DNA of 64,000 nucleotides from positions 21,948,001-22,012,000 of the forward strand of contig OZ316775.1 in NCBI GenBank assembly GCA_973851085.1, written 5' to 3'. The position numbers and the translations under genes are program-made. Positions 4,017 to 33,689 of the stretch are shown here, piece after piece; position 1 is the first letter of the stretch, and the number at the start of each line of letters is the position of its first letter. A model generated the notes under the pieces. It was not told the origin of the DNA. It searched no databases and saw only the letters and a program-made list of their open reading frames with translations. Origin of the DNA: Ptychomitrium polyphyllum (lineage: Eukaryota).

Positions 4017-4257
4017 TGTAAACCTCAAATGGGACTCCTGTAAACCTCAAATGGGACTCCTGCAAACCTCAAATGGGACTCCTGTAAACCTCAAATGGGA
4101 CTCCTGTAAACCTCAAATGGGACTCCTGTAAACCTCAAATGGGACTCCTGCAAACCTCAAATGGGACTCCTGTAAACCTCAAATGGGACTCCTGTAAACC
4201 TCAAATGGGACTCCTGCAAACCTCAAATGGGACTCCTGCAAACCTCAAATGGGACTC
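4017..4257. repeat. 22-bp minisatellite, 11 head-to-tail copies of TG(T/C)AAACCTCAAATGGGACTCC
   Basis: Read directly. Only position 3 varies (T,T,C,T,T,T,C,T,T,C,C) and the last copy is truncated by 1 nt. No spacers. Confidence 0.97.
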
Positions 4258-4944
4258 TAAGAAAGGCACCCTGCTTCCCTACCATACCAAGTCATCATGG
4301 AAAAGCCTTGGCTTCTTAGAATTTATAGCATCTCAACAAAGTTGAAGTCAATAATCCTGCTCACTAGCCAACAACAAAATATTCACTACTGTACCAGGCC
4401 ATCTTCTTTGAATTGACAATATCTACCAAATCATAACTTGTTCACACCACAGTAATTGACTGTAGTCCTGCCTTGCCAATGTGTTATTGAGTTCCAACAG
4501 TTTGGAGAAGTAAACATGAGAAATGGCACTTAAACTTCACTAGTATCAATAAGACTATATTGTTTTGTCTTGTACTGTTTAAACTGTTGATACCAGACAA
4601 AGGAGGGGATATGGTATGATCTTGTGCACTGTACTAGGTGTCTTGGAGCAATTTTCAAATACCATGAAATCCTTCAAGCTTTTAGTAGGAGCTTTTCTTG
4701 TCCATCTATAGTAGCATAGACTGACAAGCAGGCAGTGCATCTAAGATCGTGTTAAGTTCAACAGCGTGAGTTAGAGGCCCTCCCAAGGGCTGACAAACCA
4801 GTTTCAGATGGAAGAATGGTTGCATATACTAGGAAAAATATGAATTATCACAAACTGATTCCATTTCAATCTTCCTAACCTATGCTGCACTTGAAGAGTC
4901 TTTCCGGCATATCCTTCCAAAGCATTAAATACAACGCCAAAACT

Positions 4945-5030: not shown

Positions 5031-5973
5031 AAAAATTTCATAATAAACATATAAGGTTAAACACTCTACATTACCACAAGGAATGTGACTTTTGAAGAAT
5101 ATTGAATGAAATTAATGTTATTTATTAATAATAGATGCTAAGTTTCAAATCCACCACAACCAAAATGTTTTCTTGGATAAATATAGTTAGCTATGAATTT
5201 TTTTAAATATTGTTACAAGAAGCTTATGTATACCACATGTCTTTATTAAAAACTTAATGTAAATTCCACTTCTTATACATAATTACATTCCAGGGTTCCA
5301 TTTGCACCAACTTAACGTTTGCTTCAAGATGCCTTTTCAAGTAATTTTTATTTTGTTTACCTTTAATAGATATTAAGCTTGGAATTGATGGTTAACAAAC
5401 TTTCCATAGCTTGTGGTTACAAAAAATTCTAATATGATTACAATTGTATCTATTAAATTTGTAAGTGCATTATAATTTAGCTTCTAAATCAATGTAGAAG
5501 CTAAATTCAACAAGTTTTGTGTAAGTGACTAAAATCTCGAATATATTACTTAAATATTTTAAATTGACTTGTATTTTAAAGTAAGAAATTATGTTTTTCA
5601 AAGATGCATTTAAAATCTCTATGCCAAAAATCCTTCATATAGGATCCAATATATTAATATTAATGAAGCACATATGTCATTATCCATTGTCTTTTATCAT
5701 TTATTTCTTATGGTATACTAATTATTTTATTTACATGTTGAATGTCACTCATAAAACCATTGTTGATATATAAATCAAATCACATAAAGGCCTTAAAGTT
5801 ATTTTGCTTTCAAAAAAAATAACACCAAGTTGAAGCAAAATAGTTGGCATTAATTAGTTAATATATATAATTAAAGAAAAAAAAAAATTGGATTCAGAAT
5901 TAAAATCAAGGATATAATATTAATTAAATATATATCCATAATGGGCATGATATTAATGTTTAAAAAAATTTGT

Positions 5974-6300
5974 TATCACATGACGTGGCATCAAGTGCCG
6001 AGCCATGTCAAATGAATGTGGTATAATTGAATTTAAGAATTTTTTCATCCATTTAATACAAATTAGGGTTTGGAGGAAGTATTGAGTAGAGAAACTTCTT
6101 TGACTTGGCATTCTTTGCTTAATCAAACTTTATAAGTGTATTTTGAAAGACCTTATGTTTTAATTTTTTCTTGGAGATGGTAGTTTAATAATTTAGTAAA
6201 GCTTTGGGATTTGTCTACTTCTTGCACTCTTGGATTCATCCTTTGTAGAATAAAAGCTACAAAAATTTGTAGTATAGTGATTTTTTCTTTATTCACTTGG
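5974..6300 (+). repeat. Element X terminal repeat A1
   Basis: Starts TATCACATGACGTGGCATCAAG; aligns over its full length with 25324-25650 (~80% by eye). Confidence 0.9.
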
Positions 6301-9099
6301 CAAAGAATTTTGCTTGTAATTTCTAAATTATAAAATATTTTATTTCTTCCTTTTCACTTCCATCTTTAGAGTTATACAATTGAGATTTGAAGTTTTCTTG
6401 AAATTCCAATTAACTTGAAGTTTGTTAAATGAAGTGAAGGAAGCCTCAAATTTTGAGAAGATCCTTAAAAATTTGAATTACAGCTCGTCAGGCAACCAAC
6501 GATTGTCCGCGGCAAAGACAAACAACCACTGGTTGCTTGTTAATGATCATTATTTGTTTGAGGGAGTGAAGATTCCATTGCTGATAGAACCCTGCACTTT
6601 TGAAGAAAGATTTTTGTTTGTGGACAAGGTTTCATTTTGGAATTCCTACAAAGTTTATCCTTCATTAACTTTTTTATTTTTAAATTTGTTTTAGATTCAT
6701 TTTTCCTTCCTATTTCACATGTTTTGAATGTTTATGTCTTTAGAAGGTTTGTTAAAGCATAATAGAGAGGTTTTTGAATTGTGATAGTATATGTGGTATT
6801 TGTTTAGTTATTGAAGGATTTGCTATAGTACTTTAACATTATTTCCTTTTTTTTTTTGTGTCGCAAGACTTTACCACTTGTAGCTATCTACTATAGGCGA
6901 GTGCTAGTAGCTGTAGTCCATTTAAAAATTTTACAATTCGTTCTTTGAAAAAGAGGATCCAATTTTTGGATTTTTGAATTTTGTACTTGGTATTTTTCTT
7001 TATTGCAAGCATTATTACCAAGGATTTCTGGTATTGCTTTATTTTATATTGTACGTAGTTTGTGTTTATAGTTGTACTATAGGGATGAAGTTAGGTTAAT
7101 GGCCAGCAAAATCTTTCTTTTTGCATCAAGTAGGTGGTGCTTGTATAAATTGTAGTGATTGGTAGGTGATGACTCATGACCTGCAAGTTTGGTGGTGATG
7201 GTAGGTGTAAGCCAAATAAACCTCCACTAGTAGAAGGAATATTAGTTCACACAATTCTACTTCTATATGCAATTATTACGTTGCGTTGTAGTCCACTTGA
7301 AAATTGCCTAATTGAACCAATTTTCTAATTGGATAAATTCCTCCATATTTAGCCTAACATTGATGTTGTAGCATTAATTACAATATAAGTCATTAGCATA
7401 TGGCTAACTATATTATTAAATTACATACTAAATATCTAGCCAAGGTCTTCCCAATCTCAACCTTCAAGTCACCACTTTAATCCGTTTCAATCCTAAAGGG
7501 CAGCAAACTACTGAGGCCGTCTCCATGGTCCAAAACTCTAGATCTTAGATTTTTTAAAAACTAGACTTCAATAGGCTTTAGTACAATCAATTCTTGTAGC
7601 AATTGGACTTGTGACCACCAAAATGTGCCTTGCCAAGTTTGGACTTATAAGACTGCCAAATTAAAGGACCTCCTTCACTTCAAACGGCCGCTATTTCTTC
7701 CATTCTTTTCCAAATTGAACTTTCTTTGACTTGTTGAAAAGTTTATAACCTCTTCTACTAATATTTTGAATTTTAGCTTTTTCAATTGCACCATGACGGA
7801 CTAACGGCTCAAAATCCGTGCCCTAAATGTTGCCCCTTTCTTGCTCCAACACTAACTTCCCTTATTAAATACTTAATCACTTCTTTGCTCATAATTAATT
7901 CCTATTTGCTAAAAACTAAATGTGTCAACTAAATCCAAAACCTATTTCCAAAATTTAACTTCAAACACCTAACTTCAAACCCTAATTTTAAGCCGTAATT
8001 TCAATGCTTATTTTTAAAACCTAACTCTCTTTGCTTTATCAACAAAACTTCTTTTGCTAAAACTAATGGTGTGCTAACAACTAAATTTTGCTTGAAAATT
8101 CACTTTGTTTGTTTCTTTACTTTTCTTTTTTTAGGAAACTTCACTACCCTACTCCATTTCCATTGGCTGCTGAAATTTTTAGACCACTTGACCCTAATCC
8201 ATATTTTGACCTTCTTCTAAATGTAGCTACTCTTCTAAATTTAGCCAATATTTTGAAATTAGCTAATATTCTAGATTTCTATCACTATTCTAAAATTTGA
8301 TTTTTCCATTATATTTAGCCCTGTTCTAATTTTAGCTAATATTCTAAATTATGCTATTTTTTAGAACTTTGATGGTTATTACAAATTTAGCAGTGTTCAA
8401 ATTTTGAATGGTTTTTAACTTTCAACATCCAAGTCTAAATTTTGCCATTGCTCTACTTTTAGCTATTATTCTAAATTTTACTTCTGTTCTTAAGCTTCAA
8501 CTGCTATTTTAATTTTAGCTATCATTCTTATGAGTAGTAATTCCTTATCTAATTACCTTCCTTCTTACTTATTACATTTTGGATACTTGTTTATCTTTCT
8601 GAAACTCTGTTTATTTATTGGATTTAATCATTATAGGCCATGAGCGTTTGCTAAATTATACTAAGATCTCCTTAAAGATCAACTACATCCCTAATTTGGC
8701 CCTTTGGCCCTACTTAGGCATAATTTCATTTACAAATATCAGTTTTAAACAATTTTTAAGAGGAAAAACCATAATGTACTAATTCCATAGCTGTTCCAAA
8801 CAAACTAATCACAAGACAAGGCATCAGGATTCCAGAATGTGGAACAAAATAAGTCCAAGTAAATTAGAGGTATAGAGCTACAACAATATACAAAAAATAA
8901 GGCCTGAAGGTCTGAGCTAGACCACAAGAGATGCGTTGTCGAGACTAAAGAGCTCTTCAGCCTTAACTCCTACATATACTCGAACTACAAGCCTTAAAAG
9001 TTTCTTGAGAAGCTTCATTGACATTGCTTTGTAATCAAGCAACTTTGAGTTGTTATTTGGCAAGTTTGATGTGTTTGAAGTATACAAAGGCAAATTGGT

Positions 9100-11060
9100 C
9101 CTTCAAGAATATATATGCGTTCTTCAAAGTAAAGAAGACTGTCTTCTAATTTGAATTTAGCACGTTCTTCAAGAGGTTGTTGCAACAACGCTTGATTTCA
9201 ATAATAAGAGGGTCCATTATAGATGCCACGTATACCTGGTCAAGGAACAATGAATCTACCGGAGTTGAAATGGTGGTTGTGCGTATACAAAACCGTTTAA
9301 GTTTCAACAAAATTGCTTGTTGTTGATCGTTTGCTGCCTCTTCCTTGCTTTAACTTAAAGTATGATTGCCTTGACAAAGCATCTAATAATCCTTGCTATT
9401 TTTTGGATTGATATGTGATACAAGTTTTCAGCTATTTTTTGGGTTGATATGGAGTATGTCTCTATCCCAATTTGTGAAAACTTTTTAAAATGGAATGCAA
9501 TTGGATAGAGTCTTCCTTCTTCCCCCGTTTGTAACAAAACTACTCCTAATGCAAAGTCGGAAGCATCTATCTCAAGATAAAATTACTTCCAAAAGTCCGG
9601 ATGGACCAGAATAGGAGTTGTGGTAAAAGTTCACTTCAAACTTTGGAATGCATCCTCAACATCGGATCTCCATTCAAGTTTTTCCATGCATGTTAGTCGC
9701 GTGAGTGGTATAACTATTCAGGAATAGTCCTTGATGAAGATCCTATAGAAGTTTGCAAATTTAAAAAAAACATTGGACATCATGTACCAATTTTGGCCTC
9801 GTCCAATTGCTAAATGCTTTGACTTTCTTTGGATCCATCAATAGTCTTTTTTTGGAGATGATATATCCAAGGAATTCCACTTGAGGTTTGTGGAACATAC
9901 ATTTCTCCAGCTTGGCATACAAATCGGCATCTTGTAATTTTTGTAGGACTAGGTGGATATGTGGTTTATGTTCTTCTAGATTCTTTGAATAGATCAAGAT
10001 ATCATCCAGATAGCATACAATAAAATCATTGAGGCACTCCCGAAATATGACATTCATCAAGTGTTGAAAAATGGCGGGTGCATTGGTAAGTTCAAAAGGC
10101 ATGACATTGTATTCAAAATGTCCATACAAAATGCCATCTTCCATTTGTCTCCTTCTTTGATGCATATTAAATTGTAGGCTCTTCGTAAGTCTATTTTGGT
10201 ATAGATCTTTGCTTTGTTAAGTTGATCAAAAAGTCTAGATATCAGCGGCAATGGATATTAGTTCTTCACCGTCAATTTGTTGAGGTCGTGGTAATTGATA
10301 TACAATTGTAAGGATCCATCTTTCTTCTTTATAAAAAGTATTGGAGCACCAACATGAGACTTTGAATGTTGTATGAAGTTCTTGGCTATATACTCCCTCA
10401 GTGATAAAAGCTCATTTTGGGATAACTAAAAATAGGTCCAAATGGTGGCTGGGCACCATCTTGGAAGTCTATGACACAGTCGTAAGGACAATGTTTTGGT
10501 AGGGTGTTAACATTATTTTTTTCCAAAATATCATTGAATTTCTTATATTTTTATGAAAATTATTGAAGATGAAGCCACAACTTTGGACATTGGAATTGCA
10601 TACACAACAAAAGAAGTACTAGTCTTTGTTGCCCTCATAAATGCTATAGCTCTAATAAAGAGAGGCTTTTTAGATCTATAAAATCCTTTAGCTTCTTCCA
10701 TAGGCTTAATAGTTACACACTCTAATGATGGAAATTCTATTTTGCGGGATGCCCAATCTACCTGCTGGTTATACTTTTCAAGCCAAGAAAGCCCTAGAAT
10801 GATGGAACTTGATAGAGACCTAATGACATTAAATATCACTTGATTACTATAATTGTTCAATGTTATTGTTAATGGATTGGTCTTATGAATAACATCTCTA
10901 GAAGATAGCAATCAACCATCTATGACTTCTACATGGACGCGTTTGGATATTCTACTGAAAAAGAACTATGAGTTTTCATAATTTCTTTGTCAATAAAGAA
11001 AATAGAGGCTTCTAAATCTATTAGAATAAGGCTTTTGAGGTTTTGAATACCTAAGCAAAC
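9100..11060 (-). pseudogene. Gypsy Z pol remnant (protease-RT-RNase H)
   Basis: ORF fragments 10929..11135, 10543..10911 (IILGLSWLEKYN), 10057..10251, 9761..10165 ([16 protein letters not shown]...YLDDILIYS) and 9355..9537; many stops and frameshifts. Confidence 0.9.
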
Positions 11061-11690
11061 AAGTTTAATAAAACAAGAAGAAGGATGGGTTGATAAGATA
11101 AGACCTTTGTTTTCTTGTGAAGGAAGCGGATCCAACCGTACGGTCCTTACTGTGGCTGGAGGTTCTGGTTTTCCTACAAAGTGTTCAGTATTGTGGTTGT
11201 ATCTCTCATTTGATATGTACGTAGAGGTTTGTCTGGGTAGTTATCAACTGTGTGGCCAAATTTTTTAGAGTAGAAACACAACCCTTGCTGCCTTCAGCAC
11301 TTTTTTTCAGGTTGAGTAAGGGGCTTGAAGCAAATCGCATCAATTTGCATGGCTTCCACTTCCAAATACTTATTAGACGTAGACAGGGCTGTAACTATTG
11401 AAAAGTTGGTAAAAGGCCTAGGCGTAATCAAAGTGTATTTATTTTGTGGACTTAAAAATAGACATTATCGCACTTCAAAGCTTGACTGATGGCTTCATCA
11501 AGTGTTTAGAGGTCTGACATGGATAGCAATAAATCCTTAATCTTGTTGTATACTCTCCAATGAAAATGACTGATCAGCGCTTCTTCTCTTCAATTGATGT
11601 CATATGCAAGTTGTCAAAATTTTGATGCATAAATTGATATAGAATGTGGTCTTTGGCGCAAGGCACAAATCTTAGTAGTTGCAAAACAAA

Positions 11691-12826
11691 TCTTGCAAAT
11701 CTCGTAATGCACCTTAACATACAACACGCATGCCAATTTTATACACCCCACATGCACATGGTTAAGCCCCATTATTATACTCAATGTTCCAGGCTTGATT
11801 TCCAATTCTTCCTATTCATTTATCTGAAGACATCCAATTGGTTGATAGCCAATGGTTAGGTGCAGATTTCCATTCATATCCAAGGCCCTATTTGGTGTTA
11901 CTTCCATTCCATTTGGTCTAACCGCACTTAGTGGTGTCTCCCTGCCACCATTCATGAGCTCTATATGATTCCAAGATCACCCCGGGCCACCACTATGCAA
12001 GCGTGAAGTCACCACCTCAACCTAGTGATAACAAACGCACTTTTTTGAACTCACAAGTTCCTTTTGTGAAATTGGCCACCAACTAGCTCATAATGGTGTG
12101 GAAGTTTCTGTGGTGAAGTTCCAACACTAGCTCTATTAATTGAAACTTACGTTTAGTTCCTATCGAGACACTATGGGAGTGAAAAGGATGACCAATCCTT
12201 ATCTATAGTACTTTCTCTGGGATTCGGCATGCCTTATGATCCTTTATAGCTGGTTGAATCCCGTTACACCCAAAACTTTAGAAGACCATGCGATCTCTTT
12301 TGGGACTTAATTGCTAGAAGCCTCCAAAACTTCTTGCGAACCTTCAAGGAGCCATTTCTTCTATTACCGGTGTCCAAATCTATCAAGCAATCATTCTATT
12401 GTCATCTACTCTTTGCGTAGATGCAGATAATGTTTTGGTAGATATGCCTCTTCTAAGGTTAGGGACGCTTGAGGAGTCCCTCCCTCCACTAACACACTCC
12501 AGTACAGTCACAGTTTAAGCCTTCCATAGTCCAGAATAGCCTTTGGATAGCCCCGACTTTGGAATGTCATACTTTTAGCTTTGTTGTAGGATTTGAGCGA
12601 TTCTTAGCATTCTAGAATCAACTTATTGTGAGGCATTTAATTCCTATAATTTCTTCCTCGAGGCTCTTAGTCTTAATGGACAAGGATGATTTTTCTCTTT
12701 GGGGTCTTCCCACGTTAGGCCCACTTGGGTCACTGTACTATCAAAGCCACAAGTCTCAAACATTATTCTGGAGTCACCCTTGTGTCCTTAAATTTGCGGG
12801 CACTCCTTGAAGAGAGATACGCAACA
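11691..12826. mobile_element. Solo LTR V1 (~1.14 kb) inserted in the gag of Gypsy Z
   Basis: Homologous end to end with 38454-39596; ends ...GCAACA; flanks ACAAA / ATAAA (5-bp TSD with one C>T); interrupts Z gag coding. Confidence 0.8.
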
Positions 12827-12985
12827 ATAAAGCTTGTCATGGTTTCCAAATGCTTTTGCAAATGCAATTAAGAATACATTAATGTTGCTAAGTATGGGGG
12901 AATTTTTCTCAAAAAGAAGTACAAAACCAGAATAATGTATGTCTTGAGAGCAACAAGTTCATCAAACCAACATGCAAAGCGTCCA

Positions 12986-15900
12986 TGTTGTAAAAAGTGG
13001 AATATATAAAGTGATCCTAGTTGAAGTTTTTTTGTGTAGGACTAGAGCTTGATACGTCGCTAATGGTCAAAGGGGTGTCAAGGAAGAAGCCATAGAAGAT
13101 ATAGAGGCTAGGATTAAGAAAAAACAATAAGGATTTTTTATGGCTGTTAGGGTCAAGTCGGCGGCTACGGCGGCTAGGATTGGCCGCCACATGGCATCCA
13201 TTAGTAAAACAAATACAAGGCCGCCGAGTGGCACACTTTGGTGGATGATTCTAAAGTATAAGTAAAGGGGATTTAGAAATGGGAGTCATCTTGTTCCACA
13301 CTTCTCTTGTTGCAACTTTGCTCTCTCTTCTTGTTTGTTGTACTAGCTTTGTTGCATTTCTTCAATAAGTTATGGATCTACTTACACTTAATTCTACCTT
13401 TTGAAGTAGCTTGAAGTGTTTATAGTTGTTGTTATTGTGTGGAGCAAGATCACTTGGTAGTAATTGAAGATAGAGTTAGAAATGCCTAACTTTGAGGTTT
13501 TCCACATGTAGGTGCTTGGTTTGATGTTTTTCAGCTCTTATAGGATTGTGGATGTTGAAACTCCTTAGATAGTGAATTGCTTTGAGTGATGATAAGACCG
13601 TGATAGTATCTTTGTTGGAATTCAAGATCCCTAACACCAAATTATTGTGCTTGGTTTTGTTGTTTTGTAAACTCTTTGGCAAGAGTGCTTATTGAGTGGA
13701 CATAGTGAGTTGAAGGGCTTCTCTTCAGACTCATAGTTGTAAAAACTTGTGAGAAGCATAGGAGTCAAGGAAATAGTTTGTTTGGAGATACAGTTGTTAC
13801 CTCTCTTCTTAAGGCATGGCTTCAAGTGAAGGTGAAGGTTTGAGGATCATTCAAAAATTTTATGGTAAGAACTTCTACCAATGGAAGGTTATGATGGAGA
13901 TCTAATTGGCTTCTTTGGACCTTTGAAACATCATAGATGAGAGTGAGGCTGCTCCACCATTGTTGGCGGATGCAAAGGAGAAGAAGGAGTTTCAACGTCG
14001 TGAGAAGAAGGCTTTTGGCATCCTTGCCACCAACCTCGATGATGCCAACTTCGCCCATATCATTTCTTGCAAATGACTAGCAAAAGCGTGGAAGATGCTT
14101 TGCAACATCTATGAGAGCAAGAACCTCTCCAACATCATCTTCACAAGGAAGAAGTCCTTGAATTGCAAAATGGAAGAAGTACACGACCTCATGGCGCATG
14201 TGAACAAGTTGAAGGCCCTTGCAAGGCAACTTGCCATTGTGGACAAGCCATTGGAGGATTTGGATGTTGTGATTACATTGCTCATGAGCTTGCCGGAGTC
14301 TTATAGCTATCTCATAGTGGCTTTAGAATCCATTCCCATCAAGGACTTCACCATGGACTATGTGACGGCAAGATTGAGCCACGAGGAAACCAAGAGGAAG
14401 GAGAAGGCAACTTCAAGTGAGGATTCGGCCCTCTTTTTAAGGCAAGGTAAGCCCACCTATTCTAACCAATGTCCAAACCTTGGAACTTGCTTTGTGTGTG
14501 GAAAACCAGGTCAGTTTGGTCAAAATTGCTACAAGGCCAAAAGAGGAGAGAGGGAGGATGCCAACCATGTGATGGACCACCTTGGAGGTGGTGATTGTAC
14601 CTTCATGACAAGAAAAGAGGCACCTATTATGGCCCTATCCAAGTGGATAGTTGATTCGGGCGCCACAAAGCACATGAATCCTTACAAGTACTCATTTCAT
14701 ACTTACAAGACAATTCTAGCCACTAGTGTGCTAATGGGTGACAATGGCGTAGTGGAGGCCATTGAAATGGGTTCCATTGTAGTGGATGTTGTTGTAGGGG
14801 GCAAGACCAAGAGGATCACCTTCAAGGGCATGCTCCATGTGCCAAAGATGAAGTCTAACATCCTCTCAATGAGCAAACTTGTAATGGAAGGGTTTGTGGC
14901 TCATTTCAATGTAATTAGATGTGTTGTGAGTCATTGGGTAGAGGTGTTATTGCCACGGGGTTGAGGGATGGCAACTTGTACTTCATCAAGTGTAAGAAGG
15001 TGAATGGAAAGGAGGTGGCGGCCTTTGCTGAATTTCTCAAGATGAAATCAAGTTTGGCATAGGCATGGCCGCCTTGGGCACTTGAATGTAAAGGCCATGA
15101 AAGAGCTCCAAAGCATGGTAAGTGGCTTGGATTTGGGTACAACATGCGACAAGGTTAAGGAACTCGCTTATGAAGGTTGCATCCAAGGCAAGCAACAAAG
15201 GGCGTTGTTTCCAAATGGAGTGGCAACTCGGGCAAGCACATTGTTGGAAATTGTGCATTTCGATGTGTGTAGGCCTATGAAGACTCCATCCATAGGAGGC
15301 GCAAGGTATTTCCTCACCTTCATTGATGATTTTTTCGAGGAAAGTATAGGTGTTCATCCTCAAGGCCAAGAGTGAGTGCATTGTAAGGTTCAAGGAGTTC
15401 AAGGCGCATGTGGAGAAGCAATGTGAGTCCAAGATCAAGGTGTTGCGTTTGGATAATGGTGGTGAGTTCTTATCCAAGTGTTTTGATGACTTCTTGAGGA
15501 GTAAAGGCATTTCAAGGCAAACCTCTACAACAAAATGGAGTTGCTGAGAGGGCAAACCGCACCATTGTGGAGATGGCAAGGAGCATACTTCATGCTCAAT
15601 ATCTTAGGCATGAGTTGTAGGCAAAAGCAGTGGTGAATGCAGTGTACATAAGAAATAGGTGCTCCACAAGTGCCCTTGCATCCATGACCCTTGAAGAAGC
15701 TTGGAGTGATAATAAACCTTGTATTTCACACATGAGGACCTTTGGATGCCTTGCATGTGCAAAGATTCCAGATTGCATGAGGTCCAAGCTTGATGCAAAG
15801 GGTACAAAGTGTGTATTCTTTGGTTATTGTGAAGGCAGCAAAGCATATAGGCTGATGTGTGTAGAGAGCAAGAAGATCATCAAGAGTCGTGATGTTGAGT

Positions 15901-18232
15901 TCTTGGAGCACAAGAGTGCTTGTGAGCACTTGGAGAGGTGTCCAAGTGGGAGTAATGGTGTGATTGTGGATACATCCTCCATTTCAACAAAGCAAGAAAG
16001 TGGAGATGTGGATGGAGGTGAAGGAACAATGGAGGGAGAGAATAAGACGACTTCCACCCTTAAGACTAGTAGAGGAGCTTCACTAGATGATGGTGAGCAT
16101 CTTCATCAAAGTGAGGAAAATCAACCTCTAAATGAAAGAGAAGTGGATGTTTATAAGAGGAGAGGCCTGTAATGAGTGGTAGGAGGTAATCCATGAGAAA
16201 GAAGAGGCCACTTGGTGTATGGTGGAAGAACCCCATCTTCCTCCAAGTGAGTGCAGAACATGCCAATATTGACCTCTTTATTGATTCTTTAACTATGTGC
16301 AATGCCTTGAAGTCCACAGATGCCATGAAGTAGGAGAAGGCCATGGAAGAGGAGTACAAATCACTCATGGACAATGACAAATGGTACTTGACTCAACTTC
16401 CTCTACTTTGTTCTTCCATAGGTTGCAAGTGGGTATTTAGAACCAAGAGAGATGCTTTGGGTGCAATTGTGAGGCACAAGGCAAGACTAGTTGTCAAAAG
16501 ATACTCACAAGTTGCTGATATGGACTTCAATGACACATTTGCACCTGTAGCAAAGTTCACCACCATTAGAACCATCTTGGCCATAGCGGCGGCAATGGAC
16601 TTGGAGGTTCACCAGATGGATGTAAAGACTGTTTTTTTAAATGGAGACTTAGAAGAAGACATCTACATGGAGCAACCTCCAGGATTTGTACATGAAGGTT
16701 TAGAACACCTTGTTTGCAGGTTGAAAAAGGCCTTGTACGGGCTCAAGCAATCACCAAGGGCATGGTACCAACGCATTGATGCATTCTTTAGAAAGGAAAG
16801 GTTTGTGAAAAGCGAGGCGGATCTTTCCTTGTACGTGATGCAAACCATAGAGTTCTTATTGATTGTGATTTTGTATGTAGATGACCTGATCATAATGGCC
16901 AACCTTTTAGAGAAGCTAGAATGATTGAAGGCCAAATTAGAGGAGGAGTTTGAGATGAGTGATTTGGACGAGTTGCATTATTGTCTTGGAATAGATTTTG
17001 TGGGGGATTGTGCAAAGATGACCATCACCATGAGCCAAAAAATATATATTGAGGAGGTGTTGAAGCAATTCAACATGGAAGACTGCAAGGTAGTGGGAAC
17101 GCCTTTGGAGGCTAATTGGAGGTTCATGAAGCTAAGTGATTAGGAATATGCTCGAATGGAGGGCAAAATGCAAGGCATTCTATATAAGGCAGGAGTAGGG
17201 TGCTTCATATATGCTATGGTGGACACAAGGTTTGATCTTGTATTTTTGGTGAGTGTTGTGAGCCAACACACGTCCAAGGCCGGCTCCATGCACTAAGCAA
17301 CCATGAAGAGGATCATGAGGTACTTGAAGGGCACCTTGGACTTTGTATTGTGTTTGGGAGGTGATAACATTGAGTTGCAGGGATTTTGTGATGCGAATTG
17401 GATTGGAGATGCACATGATAGGCGCTTCACATTGGGGTATGTGTTCCTTGTTGGAGTGGAAGCCATCTCTTGGAACTGTAAGAGGCAACCCACAATTGCA
17501 AACTCAACTATGAAGGCGGAGCACATGGCGGCAAGTCATGGTGCTATGGAAGCAATGTAGCTAAGGCAACTCTTGGTCTTGTACAAGTGGATGCAATACC
17601 TATTATGTGTGACAATCAAGTATATCTTGCCTTTGCCAAGAATCCCAAGCATCACTCACGAACAAAAAACATCGACATCCAACATCACTTTATAAGAGAG
17701 AAGATTGAAGATGGAGTGATATATATGAGGTATTATGTATCAGAGGGCATGCTTGCTGATTTCTTAACAAAAGCATTGGTCAAAAATAGACACCACTTGT
17801 TGAAAAGGTCAATTGGATTAAAAGTCCTTTGACCAGTAGCAAAGTGGGAGTGTTGAAAATGGTGGAATATATAAAGTGATCCTAGTTGAAGTTTTCTTGT
17901 GTAGGACTAGAGTTTGATACGTTGCTAATGGTCAAAGGGGTGTCAAGAAAGAGGCCATAGAAGATGTAGAAGCTAGAATTAAGAAAAAGCAACAAGGATT
18001 TTTTATGGCTGTTAGGGTCAAGTCAGCGGTTACGGCGGCCAGGATTGGCCGCCACATGACACCCATTAGTAGAACAAATACAAGGCCGCCGAGTGGCACA
18101 CTTTGATGGATGATTCTAAAGTATAAGTAAAGGGGTTTTAGAAGTGGGAGTCATCTTGTTCCACACTTCTCTTGTTGTAACTTTGCTCTCTCTTCTTGCT
18201 TGTTGTACAAGTTTTGTTGCATTTTTTCAATA
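12986..18232 (+). mobile_element. Copia U: full-length, decayed Ty1/Copia LTR retrotransposon nested in the gag of Gypsy Z
   Basis: LTRs 12986-13367 and 17851-18232 (382 bp, ~27 mismatches by hand count). TSD GTCCA / GTCCG. PPT AAAGTGGGAG at 17841-17850. Domain order gag-ZnK-PR(WIVDSGAT)-INT-RT(LYVDD)-RH. Confidence 0.96.
13816..17832 (+). pseudogene. Copia U gag-pol polyprotein, disrupted
   Basis: ORF pieces 14095..14964 (CFVCGKPG, WIVDSGATKHM), 15082..15547 (integrase: HFDVC, LRLDNGGEF), 15630..16172, 16343..17143 (RT: HQMDVKT, LYGLKQSPRAW) and 17303..17832 (RNase H: CDNQ, KNIDIQHHF). Confidence 0.95.
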
Positions 18233-18799
18233 GTCCGTAGAATATTGTTGTGGTTGAAGCAAGGTAAAAAATTGAACTTGGTTTACAAAGTTTTGAAATT
18301 TTGAGTGCATACCATCAAACTTCTCTGGAAGGCTGATTCTTGGTTCTTTGGTTGTTGACATTTTATTCCTGGCTTGAACTTGTCTGTTTTGTTCAAAATC
18401 AAGTATAGACAATGAAGCACCTAAGTTGACTTGAGATAGCAATTGTAGTATTTCCGCTCCTTGACCATTGTGTATAATCAAATACTATACTTTGTTTTGC
18501 TTGGATAAAGTCTCGTTCTTGATTTTCAATGCTTCAGAGGCATTGATAATGGAATCTAACTTCGTTTCTTTTTAATTAGTCATATTGATTTCTTCATTCC
18601 TTGACATAGAAATAAATGGAAATAGATAAAAATTGTTAATTATGCAAGAAACCAAAGGAAATTCTAGAGGAAATATCAATCTCAAGGAGGGTAATCCGCA
18701 ACGTGTAGAGTGCTATAGTGCTTTTGAAAAAGAGGAGTGATCAGCTCTTTATCAAGAAAAACCAAACTTTGATATTATTATATGTCAGTATTGACAAAC

Positions 18800-19219
18800 T
18801 GTTATGAACAGAGGATCCATACAACAAGGCTTCAAGATTCCAGAATGTGGAACAAGATAAGTCCAAGTATATTAGAGGTATAGAGCTACAATAATGTACA
18901 AAAGACAAGGCCTGAAGGTCTGAGCTAGACTACAAGAGATGTATTGTCGAGTCTGAAGAGCTCTTTAGCCTCGACTCCTATATATACTCGAACTACAAGC
19001 TTTGGAAGCTTCTTGAGAAGCTTCATCTACATTGCTTTGTACTCAAGCAACCTTGAGTTGCTTCCTTGGAAGTTTCTTAGGCTGAAATAACTTCCTTGGA
19101 AGCTTCCTAGGCCAAGGCAACTTCCTTGGATGCTTCCTAATCCAAAGGTAACTTCCTTCGAAGCTTCCTAAATCTTCTATGAACCTTTCTTGATGCTTCT
19201 AATATGTATGTTTGTGATA
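18800..19219 (-). repeat. 5' LTR of Gypsy Z
   Basis: Minus strand T(A)TCACAAAC...TAACA; matches 8792-~9060; TATA-like TATATATAG; internal ~30-bp repeats at ~19040-19170. Confidence 0.9.
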
Positions 19220-19329
19220 ATAGCTCATAGTAAGCGTAGGTGCAGGTTGCCTTTAAGCCTATAAATAGTTGCAAGTACTGAAGTAGTTTTGTTTATGGTG
19301 CAAATGAGAATTTGATATTTTTGATTTCC

Positions 19330-21480
19330 TTCACCAGACTATTTGGAAGGTGACTACATTGAAGATTTTGAATCAGAGGTAGATATCAATTTTTACTCAA
19401 GGCAGTGGTCCATCTACTTTGTCACAAATGGCGCAAGCTACAAATGCGGCTTTCTCTATTAGAGAAGAGCCGCCAACATTTGATCTATTACAATTATTCA
19501 TTGTTCATCTAGAGGTTGAATATATTGATTTTAGGCGTAATCAAATGCAACGCATTCAAGATTTTTTTCATAAAAAGGAAGATACTCTACGTACCATGTA
19601 TGACTATTTGACACAATTTGTAGTAGAATCTAAAGAAATATTTGTTGGGAATCAACTTGTCAAGATGTTTTTGTCCAAGACTAGTAAACGGCTTTTGAAT
19701 TTGGCTACACCAAAGATCATTCTCAACTATAATAGGAAGGAAATTTTGTTGTGATAAGAGTGGTTGCTATAGGAAACGTTGGATCTTTTTGCATCTAGTT
19801 GATCAAATATTAGGTTTTTTTTATATAACTTTTATTTTATAATACAAACTACAACTTTCATTTACTTTTTAGCTACTTCTATATCTTTGGTTTTTGTTTT
19901 CCAAAATAATCCAAGTCTTTATTAACAATTCTATTTCTTCTTTCTTTTAAATCCGACTTATATATTCTTCTATATATTGAAACTCAAAGGTCCTATGTTC
20001 TTAAGATTTTAATGGGACAAGCACAAGACTTTCAAAGTACAACCTTCAAAATCTCTTATTAACAATCCAAATGGTTGTTAAGAACCATGTCCTCAAAAAG
20101 TTCACTCTTTCTATCATAGCTTCTTAACTCCCCTCCCTCTTCATTTATTTTACAATTCTATAACTTCCTTTCTACAATAAATCTATGCTTAAAAGTTTAT
20201 CTCCATACTATTTATTTTACAATAAAAATTTCATCAAAATTTCAACCTTAAAGCCCTTCCAATCATCTCCAATGGTTCAAAACATGTAGCTCCAAACTCT
20301 ACTGTAAATTGCCCTCAAATCCTGGTTGCATTTTGCCTTATATCACCTACTATAAGAATCCATTACTCTTGAAATTTCTATGCCATCATTTCTGTTGCGA
20401 GCTTTTTATAAAGCCATCACAAGCTCCTGTTAAAGTGAGAGAGGCTGAAAGATAACGAAAGGGCGGTGGTCATCCGCCTCTTATCATTCCACATCAGCTT
20501 TATCTCTCCACATCAGCCCCTATTCCTCTTTTTCAAGTCCTTATCTAATCATATCTTCAAATGGAAAACAACCCAAATCATTTTCTTTTGTTTTTCTTTA
20601 TTATTTTTCTTCTAGTTTAAACTTCTAGGAAAAAATTACAAAAGAATACAAAATCAACCCTCACAAATCATAAATAGGTAATAAAAAACTATAATAAAGG
20701 GAAGAAAGTAGAAAAAAAATTGAAATTTAACAAGAAACAACTTATGAATAATATCATTGTCGAAGTAGGATGAAATTCCAAGTCATGAATTTGTTTAATT
20801 GCATAAGTTCCAATTGCTAAACTAGTCCAAGTTCTATTCTTGTTGGATTTGTTGAATAGAACAGTAGCCCTTGACTTGCAACTGCTAACAAAAATGGCAG
20901 GCAGAAAAATACTACAGTAAATCATCCTGTTCATCCTGAGTAAAGATAAGATGCAATTTTACCTCCAAAACAAATGAAATTGTGGTTTCACTAGGACCTT
21001 TTTTAATCCAATTATTTCTTTTTCATAATACTCTTTTCCAAATACACTAATTTAAATTCCACAAAATAACAATTACTAATTAAGTTTTAAACTGTATAGT
21101 TAAATACATCGCGAGAACGCTTGCCCAAGCATTTGCTAAAGCTAAGAAATGGAATAGGGCTCTCTGCCAATATAATGCCATTGACATGGTTTTGTGGATG
21201 ATAGATATTGCTACGTTAAAGAGGGCTTTTTTAGCCACAAATAATTTGGTTGACATCTAGTCTAAGAAGAGTTTGGATTGTTGGAGGTATGATGAAGTTG
21301 GCCATATCAAGAATTATTCCAATTGTCCTAAGAAGAGACAAATTCATCTAAATGACAAGTTTAAGAAAAAAGTGGAAGTGGCTAAATTAAAAGAAAAGGC
21401 CAAAAAAAAAAATTGAAGTGTAATCATTATAGAAGGTTTAACCATAATGAGGATCATTGTTTCATTTTACATCTACAAAA
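19330..21480 (+). pseudogene. Element X gag remnant (split by solo LTR W), with two degenerate CCHC zinc knuckles
   Basis: ORF 19419..19754 ends at the W junction and resumes at ~21120 as LAQAFAKAKKWNRALCQY. Knuckle-like CWRYDEVGHIKNYS (~21279-21320) and CNHYRRFNHNEDHC (~21419-21460). Confidence 0.65.
19750..21119. mobile_element. Solo-LTR-like insertion W (~1.37 kb) in element X gag
   Basis: Starts TGTGATAAGAG and ends GAGAACG (CA>CG). Flanks TTTGT / CTTGC (5-bp TSD with two C/T differences). Non-coding and interrupts the gag frame. Confidence 0.6.
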
Positions 21481-22299
21481 GCAATCTATGTTTAAAAATG
21501 AAAAAACATTAGAAGCAAAGATTATAGACCTTAAGAAGAAATTGAAAATTGTGGCTTCATTTAGCCAAGTCAGAGAGTATTGTGCAACTTCAGGTGTTGC
21601 AACAAATAATCCTACTCCAAATTTTTATGTGTTAGGTGCATCAAGGGAGATAGTAGCGGTTGTTGCTACATGTGCCCAAATGATAATCAAGATGGTGGCA
21701 TTCACCACGCGTGAGCCACAAGAAAGGTTGCGTGTTTGCCATGCTAGGGTGTCAAATGAAATAGGCCAAATTCAATTGTCATTGTCATTTAGGCTTGCAA
21801 ATGCTGGATTTGTAGCTTAACCTTACAATCCTACTTTAACTTATGATGGAAAAATAACTTCTGGAAGATTTGCACATACCTTGGCTTATAAAGTATTGCA
21901 AATGCCTATTTTCTCCAATATTGAGATGATGGCATTAGATTTTAAGCTAGCCAACGTCTTTCAACTGGCAACCAAGTGGTGGGAAGGCAAAGTGGCAATG
22001 CCATTTTTTGAAGTGGTTCAAGCAATCACTAAGGCGTCCACAAATGAGGACTTAATTAAATTACAAGTTAAACTTCCGGTTGAAGCCATTTCTATCTTTG
22101 AAGAAGGCGCTTCATAGCAGAGTGAGTTAAAAACTACATTTGATATATCATTGGTGACTAGAGTGGCTTATTTATCTAATATTGCAGCTAGGCCTACTCG
22201 AGAGCGCTAGAATGTGCAACTAGAAGTGGTATAATTGATTAAAGATAATAATGTACTTGTTAAAAGCCGTATAGGTGGCAATGCCATTCATGTTGTACT

Positions 22300-22620
22300 A
22301 TTTTGTATTATAATAGACTATGGTGCTCAGCGGATTATGATTGATTAATAGCTTGCCTAAAAGTTTGATTTTGAGGCTATAAATCTTAAACCTTGTCATT
22401 TTATCATTGTTACCTTAGTTGGAAGTACAAAGCAAGTTACAAGTAATACATGGCAACCATTGCAGTTGATTTTCTATATTGATTATGGACCTCTTTATTC
22501 ACACTTATCTCTACAGTGTGTAGTGATTAGTGCTATCAACTATGATATTTTAATTGGTCAACAAGCACTTGATCCTCTCGGTTTTGGTTGCAACAATTGG
22601 ACCAAAGAGGCATGGAGTAG
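22300..22620 (+). pseudogene. Element X retropepsin-type aspartic protease remnant
   Basis: IIIDYGAQRIMI (degenerate D[ST]GA active site, ~22308-22345) and downstream AINYDILIGQQAL (retropepsin 'ILG' motif; ORF 22460..22687). Confidence 0.7.
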
Positions 22621-22981
22621 ACCGGGTTGGGCAACAGAAAATGGAAAAAGCAATTCATTCCTATGGCATTTGCAGCGGCCACCTTGACTATGTTAGCAGA
22701 GATTTTTTATGGATGCAATACACTGGCAATAGATTTATCTTGTGGATCTATTTTATTGGAGAGAATATTTGCATGTATGTTCAATTTTGTAGATCAACAG
22801 GATTCACTACCATTAAAAGTGCTCACACGCCATTGCAAGGATTTACTTCTATCTTGGAACACGCATACAGAGCTATCTCGGCAATGTTGGGATAGTGGAT
22901 TTTGTAAAATCTTTGGAAGTACCAGTTGCTTTATTTTTATCTACCTCTACCCACCTTATTTGTTGGCATCCATTAACAAAA

Positions 22982-23545
22982 GGTGTTATCTTCATAAAGT
23001 TATTTGCGAGCATTAGTATTGGCTTGGCAGCAATTTTGGAAGTTGGAATGAAGGTTAGGTGGTACATTCATGTGGATATTAGACTTATATCCAAGAAAAC
23101 CGCTCAATATCACCTCCAAAGTTTGTTGGCTCAATATCTTACGCAATTAATTTTTTTTGCTGTTCAAGGTTGTTTTGATCAACTTCTTCAAAATGTCATC
23201 TTAATAAATGATGAAGATTTAAGGAGGTTAGGCTACATTGACTTGCTCATTGCTAGTTGGCCTTGCCAAGGTCACTGACGTACTGGGACAGGTCAAAATT
23301 TAGATGATTCTCGATCCAGTCTTTTTGTAGTTTTGATGCGGCTCACTGAGTCATAGTTTATTCATTAATTCTAGTCATCAAGGTACATATTTGAGAATGT
23401 GCCTTGGAGGATACACAACAAAATATTGTAGAAGATGGACATTATAATTGCCAATTCCTTAATCCTCCAACCTTTGTAGATGTCGCCCCATTGGGATCTT
23501 ACACACATTGTGCTCATTGGTTTTGGACCAACTTGGCCCCATTTC
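22982..23545 (+). pseudogene. C5 DNA-cytosine methyltransferase domain (DNMT3-like motif layout) within element X pol, disrupted
   Basis: GVIFIKLFASISIG (motif I-like, from ELFxGIG); YIHVDI (II); IDLLIASWPCQGH*R (IV, catalytic PC); DSRSSLF (V); YIFENVP (VI); after a frameshift VDVAPLGSYTHCAHWFWTNL (VIII-like HRxRxFWTN). Motifs IX/X are not seen because the sequence is cut at ~23550. Confidence 0.88.
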
Positions 23546-23559
23546 ATATGATCTATCTA

Positions 23560-24233
23560 GGATCTTTTGCATTTCAACCACGTGGGCCTGGCATGGTGGA
23601 GGGTGGTTTGGAGATTATTGGAGCAACTAGGATTTAGTGGAGGGTGGTTTGGAGATTATTGCGGCAACTAGGATTTGGAGTTTGGGCCGTCAGTCCCTTA
23701 TTGTGCAGTGTAGGAGCTGAAATTTGGAGGGTTTATAGAAGAAATTATAAGCTTTTCAACAAGCCAAAGAATGCCCAATTTGAAAAAGTATAAAAGAAAT
23801 GGCGGCCGTTTGAAGTGAAGAGTGTCCAATGGTCGGCACTCTTGTAAGCCCAACTTTGGCAAGGCACATTTTGGTGGTCCCAAGTTTGATTGCTATAAAA
23901 TTCAATTGTGTTAAAGCCGCTTGAAGTCTAGTTTTTAGAAAATCTAAGATCTACAGATTTGGACCACAAAGACGGCAACGGCGGTCAATTTTAGATAATT
24001 AGTAGGTAATCTAAGAATATAGTTGGCCATATGCTATTAAATTACATAATAATTGATGCTACAACATCGATGTTGAACTAAATATAGAGAATTTTATTTA
24101 ATTAAGAAGCTGGATTCAACTAAGCAATTTTCAATTGCACTACAACACAACATAAGTAATTGCATATAGAAATAGGATTGTGTGAATTAATATTCCTTCT
24201 ATTAGGAGAGGTTTATTTGGCTCACAGCTACCA
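23560..24233 (+). mobile_element. Partial LTR Y2 (same family as Y1, opposite orientation) at the site of the RT/RNase H/integrase-core deletion of element X
   Basis: ~23680-24233 is the reverse complement of 7199-~7815 and ends ...GGCTCACAGCTACCA. A 41-bp tandem duplication lies at 23596-23677. Left boundary approximate. Confidence 0.75.
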
Positions 24234-24236
24234 TGA

Positions 24237-24892
24237 ATGGTTATAGACTATCATTCTAGCAAAGAAGTATCATTGACATCTTACAGCCCTTATTAATTGT
24301 TTTATGAAAGAGAGCATATTTTGCCTAGCTCAATACATGAGAAGCTGACTTTAATTGTGGACTTAAATGACCCTAATATTTGGGCTCAATGTCTATATAA
24401 TCAAGGGGAAGTTTTCAAAAGAACATACCTATGGCCATAGAAAATCTATCCATTGCTCATCTTTGTAATACTTTGCGTTATACTTGTATCCATAGTAGAG
24501 CTTATTGACCTTAATTGCAGTAATTCTCCAAGGAAGCTTATGTATATTTACAACATGAAGCGCCTACTATGCTTGAGGTAAAGGTGAAGCACACCATTCT
24601 ACGTATAAAAGATGTGTTGCTTAGTGGTATTTTGTTGTTGGAAAGCAAGAATGAGCTAAAGTGTCAGAAGAGTTTTAAGAAGTGTGCTCCACGACACCTT
24701 TCTATTGATGGTATTGTATATTTTAAGCAACCAGTAGTGCTATCTGGCCTTCTTTGCTTTATTTGTGGTAAGAAGTAAGAAGCAACTACTATGCTATAAT
24801 GTGATCAGTGCGAACACGATCAGCATATGGCATGTTTGAATGCACCTCTTTTAACCTTACCTTTTGGAGATTAGGTTTGCCTTCATTGTAAG
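24237..24892 (+). pseudogene. Element X integrase C-terminal region plus PHD finger, disrupted
   Basis: DYHSSKEVSLTSYSPY*LFYEREHILP (integrase 'YR.S...SPY.LL.GR' region), then MAIENLSIA...EAYVYLQ. PHD CFIC-x10-CDQC-x4-H-x2-C-...-GD*VCLHC at 24755-24889 (C4HC3, conserved Trp mutated to TAG). Confidence 0.85.
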
Positions 24893-25219
24893 AATTTTTT
24901 TAGCCTTGTTTCATCTATTAATAAAAATTGAGGATTTTATGAGAATTTGCCACATGTTGGATAATTTTTTGTTACAAATTCAAAGTTGGAGTTAGGCGTG
25001 AAGATTGACAAGGAATTCAACATTAAAACTATCAAAGGCAATTAAAGATGGAGCTCATATTGTACCCGGCCAAAGAATTCCCTAGTCATTTTTTTTATAG
25101 TTTTCTTAGCTTATTTGAATTACCATGACATCAACGTGGCATTCTTTTTTACCTATGTATGATTGTAGTACTAGTAATATGATGGAACTATATTATCAAC
25201 TTGAAGGGGGGCACTTGAG

Positions 25220-25752
25220 AATATGCTTATTATACATTCTTGTTTAGTTATTGTTTGCTACAAAATTGATTATGATTGAAATACTCAATTTGTTGCGTTA
25301 ACAATCTTTATTTTTACTACAGCTGTCACATGACGTGGCATCAAGTACCAAGCCACATCAAATGAATGTGGTATAATTGTTCTAAGAAGTATTTCATCCA
25401 TTTAGTACAAATTAGGGTTTGGAGGAGGTATTAAGTAAAGAAACTTCCTTCCCTTGGCATTCTTTGCTTAATCAAGCTTTGTGAGTGTGTTTTGAAAGAC
25501 TTGCTGTTTTAATTTTTTCTTGGAGATGATAGTTTAATCATTTAATAAAGCTTTAGGGTTTTGTCTGCTTCTTGCACTCTTGGATTCATCTTTTATGGAA
25601 TGTAAGCCGCATGACTTTGTAGTGTAGTGATTTCTTCTTTGTTCTCTTGAAATGTGATTACTATATATTCCTGTTTAATTTATATTTGCCACAAAACAAA
25701 TTATGATTGTAATACTCAATCTGTTGTATTGACATTTTTTATTAACAATACG
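25220..25752 (+). repeat. Element X right end: B1 (25220-25321) - GC - A2 (25324-25650) - B2 (25651-25752)
   Basis: B1 vs B2: gapless alignment with 20 mismatches over the first 93 nt. A2 matches A1. B1 is preceded by the polypurine tract. No B copy lies upstream of A1. Confidence 0.88.
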
Positions 25753-26808
25753 TTGTGTAATATAATACAATGATTTTATTATGCTTTCAATCCAACCATA
25801 TATTTATTTATAATTATTTTTTGGAATAACAATATAAAGAAATTTAATTTAATTCTAAAAATTTGATGATTTTTTTAAAACACATTTTGGACAATAATGA
25901 ATTCCATTCAAATAATAGTTTTTAATTAAATATTTCATTATTGCATGAATTCTTTAAAAAAGGATTGTCATAATATTTAAACTCATTAATCAATTAAAAG
26001 ACTTATAAATTCTTGTATCTATGTATATTGAAGGTATAAAAAGAAAAAAATAGTAGAAAATTAAGAAGTATACTAAGTATGTCATGTGAATATTTTTAAA
26101 TATTTAATTTTATATATAAATGTAATTTAAACATAGATTTAAGATTATTAAAGAATTTTAAATATTATACGGTTTAGCTTTTTCAAATAATATGAACCTA
26201 ATTTGGAATTCAAATAGTTTTTTTAAATTTTAATTGTGTAGCTTATTGAACTTCGAAATACTTTGTGTTTAAATGGAAAAAGAATTCAAGAATATTTCAA
26301 ATAAGAGTGAAGTCTTGTGATTTCTATATTTGAATATGTATCATTTATGACTTGTTATTATAGTTTCTATTACATCCAATAAAATAATTAATCCCTTTAC
26401 CAAAAAAACAAAACCAATATTTTTTTTTATTGTATTTTTTTTTACTAATATTTTACTTTTTAAATGATGAAATAATTTTTTTTAAATATTGTTTACGTAA
26501 TTTCTTGGATCTAATTCCATAAATATCTTTAAAATGATTTAAAAACTTTTGGAAGCATTCTATGTTTTTTTTATTATAATATAATTTCTAATTTTTAATA
26601 AATAGAATTTATTTTATAATTTTATAATTTTAAAAAATTTAATGAAATAAAATGCATTCAAGAATCTTAGTTTTATATACCTTCAAAACTTTGGAATCAC
26701 TTGGTATTTTTTAATAATTATAGAAATAATTATTTGAATTTTTAACAAGTTATCATCAGTTTTATTAATAATGTTGGTAAAAAATCAAAATACTATGATA
26801 AAAAAAAA

Positions 26809-32451: not shown

Positions 32452-32852
32452 TGTTGAAAAGGGTGGAACATATACAATGATCATAGTTGAAGTTTCCTTG
32501 TGTAGGACTATAGCTTGATAGGTTGCTAATGGTCAAAGGGGTATCAAAGAAGAGGCCATAGAGGATATGGAGGCTAAGATTAAGAAAAAACAACAAGGAT
32601 TTTATATGGCGGCTAGGGTTATGGCGGTCGTTAGGGTTAGGATGGCCGCTACGGCGGCTAGGGTTGGCCGCTACATGGCACTCATTAATGGAGGCAAATG
32701 CATGGCCGTCAAGTGGCATACTTTGATGGATGAATTTGAAGTATAAGTAAAGGGATTTTAAAAGTGGGAGTCATCTTGCTCCTTACTTCTCTTGCTACGA
32801 CTTTGCTCTCTCTTCTTGCTTGTTGTACTAGCTTTGTTGCATTTCTTCAATA
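32452..32852 (+). mobile_element. Solo LTR of the Copia U family inserted in Gypsy T gag
   Basis: Matches the U LTRs end to end (TGTTGAAAA...TTCAATA) with ~19 extra nt of a GGCGGCTAGGGT-type motif; TSD CTTTC / CTTCC. Confidence 0.93.
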
Positions 32853-33689
32853 CTTCCTTGATTTGTATCAATCTTGCTATCTTGATGGCACTATTCAAGA
32901 GGGATTTGCAGCCACTCTTCTATCAAATAATGCACTATTGTGGTTTGCATTATTAATGGAGAAGCAATCATTATTACTGAGCAACTTGTATGCTTTCATG
33001 GAAGCATTGACATAAAACTTTGGAGATATTGACTAAGAGAAGGTGGCTGAAACAAGGATTCAAAGTCTACAACAAAGATAGCACTCAATTGCAACATATA
33101 TTGCAAAATTGCATCAACTAGCTTGCGACCTTAATTGGAACAATAAATTTGGTCACAAAATTCCAATGTGACGTGAGCGAGAATATAAAGAACTTGTTAC
33201 TCACAATGCTAAGGGTTGATACATTGGATAAATTCATCAGTTAAGCAATAGCATGTGACAATAGACTATTTTAGAGGTGCTAAGAACAATGCTTGGGATA
33301 GCAACCGGTACATCAAAGTATAGCAACTACTTCTCCAAAAATATTAGAAACTTGACTACAAAAAATTTAACCTGTGCAAATTGATGCTGCCTAATTTAGA
33401 AATTTGACTCCCAAAAAAATAGATATGCGTCAAAGAAGAAATCTATATTTGTATTGTGGCAAATTTAGATATAAAGTGCGCAATTGTCAAATCAAGGGAT
33501 CTACTTTTAAGACTCAAAGCACAATGGTAGAATTGGAAAATGAAGTTGTCTAGTCATAGTAGGAACCATAAAACAAAACACCATAAAAAAATGACCATTA
33601 AGTCAATGTTTTTTATTAATTCCAACTCCTACCTTTTGTTTTATATTTATTATAAATATCAAATTGTTAGATGATGAAATAATTAGTAA

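Follow-up and report, generated by a model that had tools for sequence, protein, structure and literature searches.

The stretch of DNA analysed here, called the window, comprises 64,000 nucleotides of Ptychomitrium polyphyllum (assembly GCA_973851085.1, contig OZ316775.1, positions 21,948,001 to 22,012,000 of the forward strand) and harbors a decayed retrotransposon of the Gypsy type with an unusual arrangement of terminal repeats. Integrated Ty3/Gypsy elements end in two complete long terminal repeats (LTRs), whereas this copy carries a segment A alone at the left and the segments B, A, and B at the right, in the order TTGT-A1...PPT-B1-GC-A2-B2-TTGT, where PPT is the polypurine tract (Table 1).

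Split terminal repeats and the enzymes of intact relatives

The end features of the copy had been recognized in an initial annotation of the window, and all of them were found where it placed them; its lengths for A and B, 327 and 102 nt, become 321 and 110 nt here, the difference lying in the assignment of a 6–7 nt overlap between the end of A and the start of B. A1 and A2 align with 278 matches and 41 mismatches, and B1 and B2 with 83 matches and 26 mismatches (76%). No B copy adjoins A1 on either side, and no further copy of A or B lies within the window. A1 starts with TA, a decayed form of the TG found at the same place in other copies (variants at A2 25330, loose contig ends), and the CG that closes B2 is a decayed CA that aligns exactly with the terminal CA of B1. 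Intact TG and CA are kept at the internal junction as well as in other copies. The outer ends, TA...CG within TTGT, thus correspond to the TG...CA termini and 4–6 bp target site duplication (TSD) of Ty3/Gypsy elements, the TSD being taken from one copy. At the base composition of the window, the two flanks would agree over 4 bp by chance with a probability of ~0.013–0.014, so the TTGT duplication by itself is modest evidence.

Table 1. Coordinates of the split-end element and of the insertions within it (window numbering; ORF, open reading frame)
Feature	Position	Strand	Remarks
Left TSD, TTGT	5970..5973	+	Abuts A1; equal to right flank
A1, left terminal repeat (promoter part and R-U5 of the B+A LTR)	5974..6294	+	87% identical to A2
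TATA-like box	6080..6085	+	~30 nt upstream of predicted self-primer; same spacing in A2 and L001
Predicted self-primer, 5' end of RNA	6110..6118	+	Complementary to 6300-6308
Primer-binding site	6294..6308	+	Directly after A1; opens with CACTTG, as B does
5' untranslated region, first part	6309..7204	+	6886-7118 is 71% identical to L001 643-876; collinear to ~7204
Younger nested insertions (~12 kb), foreign to the element	7205..19229	.	L001 alignment breaks off at ~7204 and continues from 19238
Broken ORF1: gag, zinc knuckle, protease, Dnmt3-like cytosine methylase (~22976-23597)	19265..23597	+	tblastn, 48-60% identity to L001 ORF1
Unrelated 1.4 kb insert inside ORF1	~19744-21115		
Truncated insert, family of 7205-7873, inverted	23598..24226	-	Sits at the ~2.95 kb deletion site
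Broken integrase C-terminal part and PHD finger	24228..24928	+	55-57% identity to L001 ORF2 residues 814-1047
Polypurine tract	25203..25211	+	Directly before B1; likewise placed in L001 and L003
B1, first part of the functional LTR	25212..25321	+	Starts CACTTGA, ends TACA
Internal attachment junction CA-GC-TG, palindrome	25320..25325	+	GC spacer 25322-25323
A2	25324..25643	+	Starts TG
B2	25644..25752	+	Ends TACG; joined to A2 via a single copy of the shared motif
Right TSD, TTGT	25753..25756	+	

Intact relatives, L001 and L003, were found via the methylase domain. Both encode gag, zinc knuckle, protease, and C5 methylase, followed by reverse transcriptase (RT), RNase H, an H2C2 finger, an rve core (Pfam, E ~1e-13), and a PHD finger, that is, the order protease-RT-RNase H-integrase with a DDE core that characterizes Ty3/Gypsy elements. 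In the PDB, the integrase is nearest to those of Ty3 and foamy virus (PFV), and the methylase to DNMT3A/B, the first 29 of 45 matches being DNMT3A/B/C; as in Gypsy-Dnmt3 elements, this Dnmt3-like C5 methylase (PF00145) lies inside the polyprotein. The initial annotation had read a Gypsy-type DDE integrase from the residues of the window itself, but the window keeps only the integrase tail, from residue 814 of the ORF2 of L001, and the PHD finger, and lacks the D,D,E core.

Because the split-repeat order A1-B1-A2-B2 is found here and is described as what defines the PAT, Ngaro, and Viper elements (PMC4157794), an element of that kind, moved by a tyrosine recombinase of its own or acting in trans, has to be considered. 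In the intact relatives, however, the rve integrase is intact and a frame for a recombinase is absent: none of the 24 other frames of at least 90 aa matches any Pfam family, no tyrosine recombinase appeared in the main ORFs scanned, and PF00589 occurs in 0 of 38 related proteins, whereas rve is listed for 7 of them. The TG/CA ends, PPT, and TSD likewise fit DDE chemistry, and tyrosine-recombinase retroelements are not known to have any of the three. A recombinase-based origin is therefore very improbable, and the initial preference for a DDE integrase is upheld by the relatives.

The closest named proteins are from Sphagnum fallax and Marchantia polymorpha, indicating that methylase-bearing Gypsy elements reach bryophytes. 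The relatives in M. polymorpha, which make up 11 of the 38 matches (P0183-P0189, P0192, P0195, P0198, P0202), are annotated as hypothetical host genes, and so are those in S. fallax (P0003). A protein search with the integrase tail and PHD finger of the window yielded 0 of 178 candidates, and a search of representative sequences returned 187 mostly short fragments without context. Among viral contigs, there were no relatives by protein and no matches to the junction pattern described below; in prokaryote genomes, that pattern matched five times, and none of the five was related to L001 by tblastn or blastn, so they are taken as chance.

In all three loci at hand, ORF1 and ORF2 are in frame and parted by TAG followed by CAR-YYA (L001:5083-5091, L002:2081-2089, L003:4661-4669). 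TAG-CAR-YYA is the leaky-stop context of tobacco mosaic virus. Judging from this context, readthrough would make the RT-integrase, with gag-protease-methylase in excess.

Priming sites and an attachment site inside the LTR

The sequence supports a functional LTR composed of B followed by A, as initially proposed, because the PPT directly precedes B in the window, L001, and L003 and the site of minus-strand priming follows A, the placement of both sites around the LTR being that of Ty3/Gypsy elements. The element appears to be self-priming. In L001, the sequence after A contains a 16-nt perfect complement to a stretch inside A, a length reached by 0 of 5000 shuffles, and the region folds with the primer helix (z -4.2). 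The window has a 9-nt perfect complement plus a G-U pair, and 150 of 5000 shuffles reach 9, which is weak alone; between the window and L001, however, primer and binding site co-vary by one matched substitution and one matched 1-nt indel. For the self-priming Tf1 and Tcn1 elements, complementarity of at least 10 bases between the LTR and the site just behind it has been used as a criterion (PMC6317226), a length that L001 exceeds with 16 and the window approaches with 9 plus G-U. Neither this site nor the Dnmt3-like methylase domain figured in the initial annotation.

Inside the B+A LTR, the B|A junction reads CA-GC-TG in the window, CA-GT-TG in L001, and CA-GC-TG in L003, with a 2-nt spacer in all three elements, and GACA/TGTC inverted repeats enclose it in L001 and L003. 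The B parts of the three elements differ by ~30%, yet the junction is kept. Other copies were traced in the contig sets X1 and X2, which stem from one sample, probably the source of the window; the following counts are of assembled contigs. Unrelated flank begins exactly before 25324 in at least 6 of 162 contigs (X1) and at least 6 of 175 (X2), with an agreement of 0.53–0.54, and the comparison of the B region shows at least 4 + 2 contigs with unrelated sequence before A. The end of A runs into priming-site sequence in at least 4 (X1) and at least 5 (X2) contigs, A-to-B joints occur in at least two other copies, and the B end, ACACAACA, is followed by unrelated flank in at least 6 of 35 contigs (agreement 0.59). 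Contigs of X3 and X4 added nothing usable. Since several contigs break there into unrelated flank, the start of A and the end of B are the termini of several independent insertions, which bears out the early suggestion that TG/CA attachment ends inside the LTR are used by independent copies.

A second motif, CA(C/T)TTG, is present at both the end of A and the start of B, which are the two ends of the cDNA, and occurs once at the A2|B2 joint, while at the two contig A-to-B joints it has a diverged form. It lies at 6294-6299 and 25212-25218 of the window and at 8550-8558 and 9022-9028 of L001, and also reads CA-NN-TG, possibly a vestige of ancestral ordinary LTR ends.

This second CA-NN-TG makes ordinary ends conceivable and invites a simpler account, in which a common Gypsy element with B+A LTRs was later rearranged, losing B at the left and gaining B at the right. 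A divergence of B2 above expectation and two contigs with unresolved sequence before B fit such a history. On the other hand, it requires two exact breaks at one conserved junction in addition to a chance match of TTGT (0.013), and at least six other copies break at the start of A, at least six at the end of B, and at least two others have A-to-B joints. The same layout has also been published for Klebsormidium nitens, as stated in a figure legend (PMC5890265). Later rearrangement of an ordinary element is thus largely refuted, and we regard it as improbable.

Taken together, the copy is probably the remnant of a Gypsy-Dnmt3 retrotransposon that encoded a DDE integrase and has its integrated ends inside the B+A LTR, the integrase likely cutting end-joined, circular cDNA at the internal CA-NN-TG. 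Owing to the TATA-like box inside A, A alone could start transcription and would suffice at the left end, with RNA beginning inside A1, ~135 nt in. The 5' end of this RNA would pair with the site after A and prime the minus strand as in Tf1, and the plus strand, primed at the PPT before B, would complete a linear cDNA of the form BA-internal-BA; both priming steps have support in the sequence. The two cDNA ends may then be joined through CA(C/T)TTG into an A|B joint, and the integrase would make a 2-nt staggered cut after each CA at the palindromic junction of the left LTR. Such a cut would leave 2-nt 5' overhangs equal to 3'-processed retroviral ends, and insertion would yield the product seen, A-internal-B-A-B, with 4 bp of the target duplicated and the 2-nt spacer lost. 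Given that B2 could not be copied from the RNA, it would be the B of the left LTR moved to the right end, and joining of the cDNA ends via the motif plus cleavage of the left B|A junction would give exactly this order.

Several points weigh against this route. The TSD length rests on the window copy, the one with both flanks, and X1 and X2 are a single sample in which the loose ends are short consensus lines, unphased into whole elements. The sequences of L001 and L003 have no flanks and read PPT-B-A(-PBS), where PBS is the primer-binding site, as a collapsed ordinary LTR element would; hence, they define the LTR and the junction motif but say nothing on the split ends. The two contigs with unresolved sequence before the start of B may represent the ends of ordinary LTRs. 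Because the two junctions of a circle are equal, the mirror product A-B-A-internal-B is expected as well. Moreover, the model predicts repeats of the same age, whereas B1 and B2 are more diverged than A1 and A2 (26 of 109 versus 41 of 319 sites; Fisher p = 0.009 in a post hoc test), the last 45 columns of A also being high (11 of 45). With regard to the distribution of these differences, the stretch 25594-25752, which holds the final 45 columns of A together with the whole of B, has ~2x the divergence of the rest of A, and both relatives are closer to B1 than to B2. A U3 effect was considered as the cause of the excess in B and rejected, the halves of A being alike (p = 0.74).

Alternatively, the internal attachment site may be used without a closed circle, by way of a linear concatemer or of a join made after insertion. 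In one variant, a third jump of RT via the shared end motif gives BA-internal-BA-B(A), in which the integrase cuts two junctions; in the other, the substrate of the integrase is linear cDNA, cut at the left junction, with the short B being joined to A2 in repair after strand transfer. Both lead to the same product and account for the use of the left junction; the shared motif, moreover, lies within the primer-binding site, where RT already works, and template mixing at the RT jump could explain the excess divergence of the end of A2 and of B2. Sequence, though, cannot separate the linear route from the circular one, and a contig reading 3' untranslated region-PPT-B followed by 182 nt unlike A fits one-LTR-circle or mirror products, although recombination between B1 and B2 gives it too. 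A linear route is rated as rather unlikely, and cleavage of the joined, circular cDNA remains the preferred reading. The contig in question, record 2 of X2, lies at window 25210-25313 (table coordinates) and represents a right end without A2-B2.

Decayed body and surroundings of the copy

L001 (9317 nt) aligns to 6886-7118, 19238-19743, 21116-23597, and 24227-25650 of the window and is thus collinear with both halves of the copy, so that the two ends are those of a single element interrupted by younger insertions. The copy is dead, with frameshifts and stops throughout, and a deletion of ~2.95 kb (L001 is unaligned between 4568 and 7524) took the end of the methylase, RT, RNase H, and the integrase core. 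What is left of the methylase and of the PHD finger is still recognizable (PF00145, E 3.8e-05; PF00628, E 1.9e-06). Nested in 7205-19229 are an LTR-like repeat, a minus-strand Gypsy element (RT 9764-10216), and a Copia element (12986-18240). The LTRs of the latter are 8.5% apart (91.5% identical) versus 12.9% for A1/A2, in agreement with the nesting order.

As for the insertions themselves, 7205-19229 is bounded by GTAGG/GTAAG, and the Copia element has the near-TSD GTCCA/GTCCG, lacks a TGG-type primer site, and has another LTR copy at 32452-32852. The LTR-like repeat, starting TGT(A/G)AGCC, is present in two inverted copies, 7205-7873 and 23629-24234, both within the outer element. Elsewhere in the window, there is another Gypsy-like element with LTR-like repeats (31431-38350, RT 34000-34776; an inverted third repeat copy at 59048-59589), an exon-sized frame of a choline-transporter-like host gene (53958-54428; PF04515, E 4.7e-26), a tandem array with a 22-nt unit (3968-4301), and an exact 61-nt tandem duplication (42299-42421).

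Known systems and meaning

The nearest published counterpart is KnitGypsy-Dnmt3 of K. nitens (de Mendoza et al. 2018, PMC5890265), for which the legend of Fig. 4 reports Gypsy domains and DIRS-type repeats in the order A-coding-B-A-B. Judged by the description in that legend, it shares with the window family the Gypsy domains, a Dnmt3-like methylase in the polyprotein, and the layout; in contrast, the methylase here lies in the gag-protease ORF before the stop codon, a PHD finger follows the integrase, and the host is of the land-plant type. The terms circular, target site, priming, PHD, and polypurine have 0 occurrences in the main text of that paper, which accordingly contains no analysis of the ends or of the mechanism. 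No K. nitens protein is named among the 38 related proteins or their examined cluster members. The layout is, therefore, already known from one legend sentence of 2018, and what is new here is the definition of the LTR by its priming sites, self-priming with covariation, the conserved junction with a 2-nt spacer, the microhomology of the ends, and termini from multiple copies. A mechanism for the split-repeat Gypsy layout was not found in print in the open literature, most subscription journals, Repbase, and theses lying outside the search, and the Marchantia papers searched by term held no description of element ends.

Split direct repeats A1...B1-A2-B2 are described for PAT, TOC, kangaroo, Ngaro, and Viper, in which insertion likely takes place at an internal junction of the repeats (PMC4157794). 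The window family resembles these elements, as described there, in both respects and differs from the PAT/Ngaro group in its DDE integrase, PPT, self-primer, TG/CA ends, and 4-bp TSD and in having no tyrosine recombinase. Its self-priming arrangement is that reported for Tf1/Sushi and the plant element Tcn1, in which a sequence within the LTR is complementary to a site just behind it (PMC7175516, PMC6317226), but those elements are described with ordinary paired LTRs and a chromodomain, whereas a PHD finger, a methylase, and split ends are found here.

With respect to cleavage, the integrases of HIV-1 and foamy virus are reported to be able to cut the palindromic LTR-LTR junction of 2-LTR circles, producing CA-3' ends (PMC4372172). 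The parallel, on that account, comprises a DDE enzyme, a palindromic CA...TG junction, and integration-ready ends. In the viruses, however, this is described as a side route that acts where the true cDNA ends have been joined and that restores ordinary LTRs, whereas the junction of the window family is inherited as a mid-LTR site and its use appears to be the regular route. In the IS3 family, for example IS911, a DDE enzyme of the rve type likewise opens circles where two ends meet across a short spacer; these insertion sequences are bacterial DNA transposons without reverse transcription.

Beyond the single copy, there may be a widespread Gypsy clade in streptophytes (moss, liverwort, charophyte) with a mid-LTR attachment site and obligate integration from a microhomology-joined circle, independent of the tyrosine-recombinase elements; on this wider proposal, the chances appear evenly balanced. 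Gypsy-7a of Chlamydomonas, an element active in laboratory strains, might represent this system with a B of 8 bp. Circular cDNA of retroviruses and LTR retrotransposons is mostly regarded as a dead end, and cleavage of its junction is described as a side reaction of the HIV-1 and foamy virus integrases only (PMC4372172). If the circular route is true, the window family would provide a natural case of an internal palindromic junction as the regular substrate of an integrase, and the question of the circle as a precursor becomes testable. Split direct repeats, as the family shows, do not by themselves identify an element as one of the tyrosine-recombinase kind, and LTR finders will mis-draw such split-end elements and their solo A-B remnants. 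Finally, methylase-carrying retrotransposons extend to mosses and liverworts.

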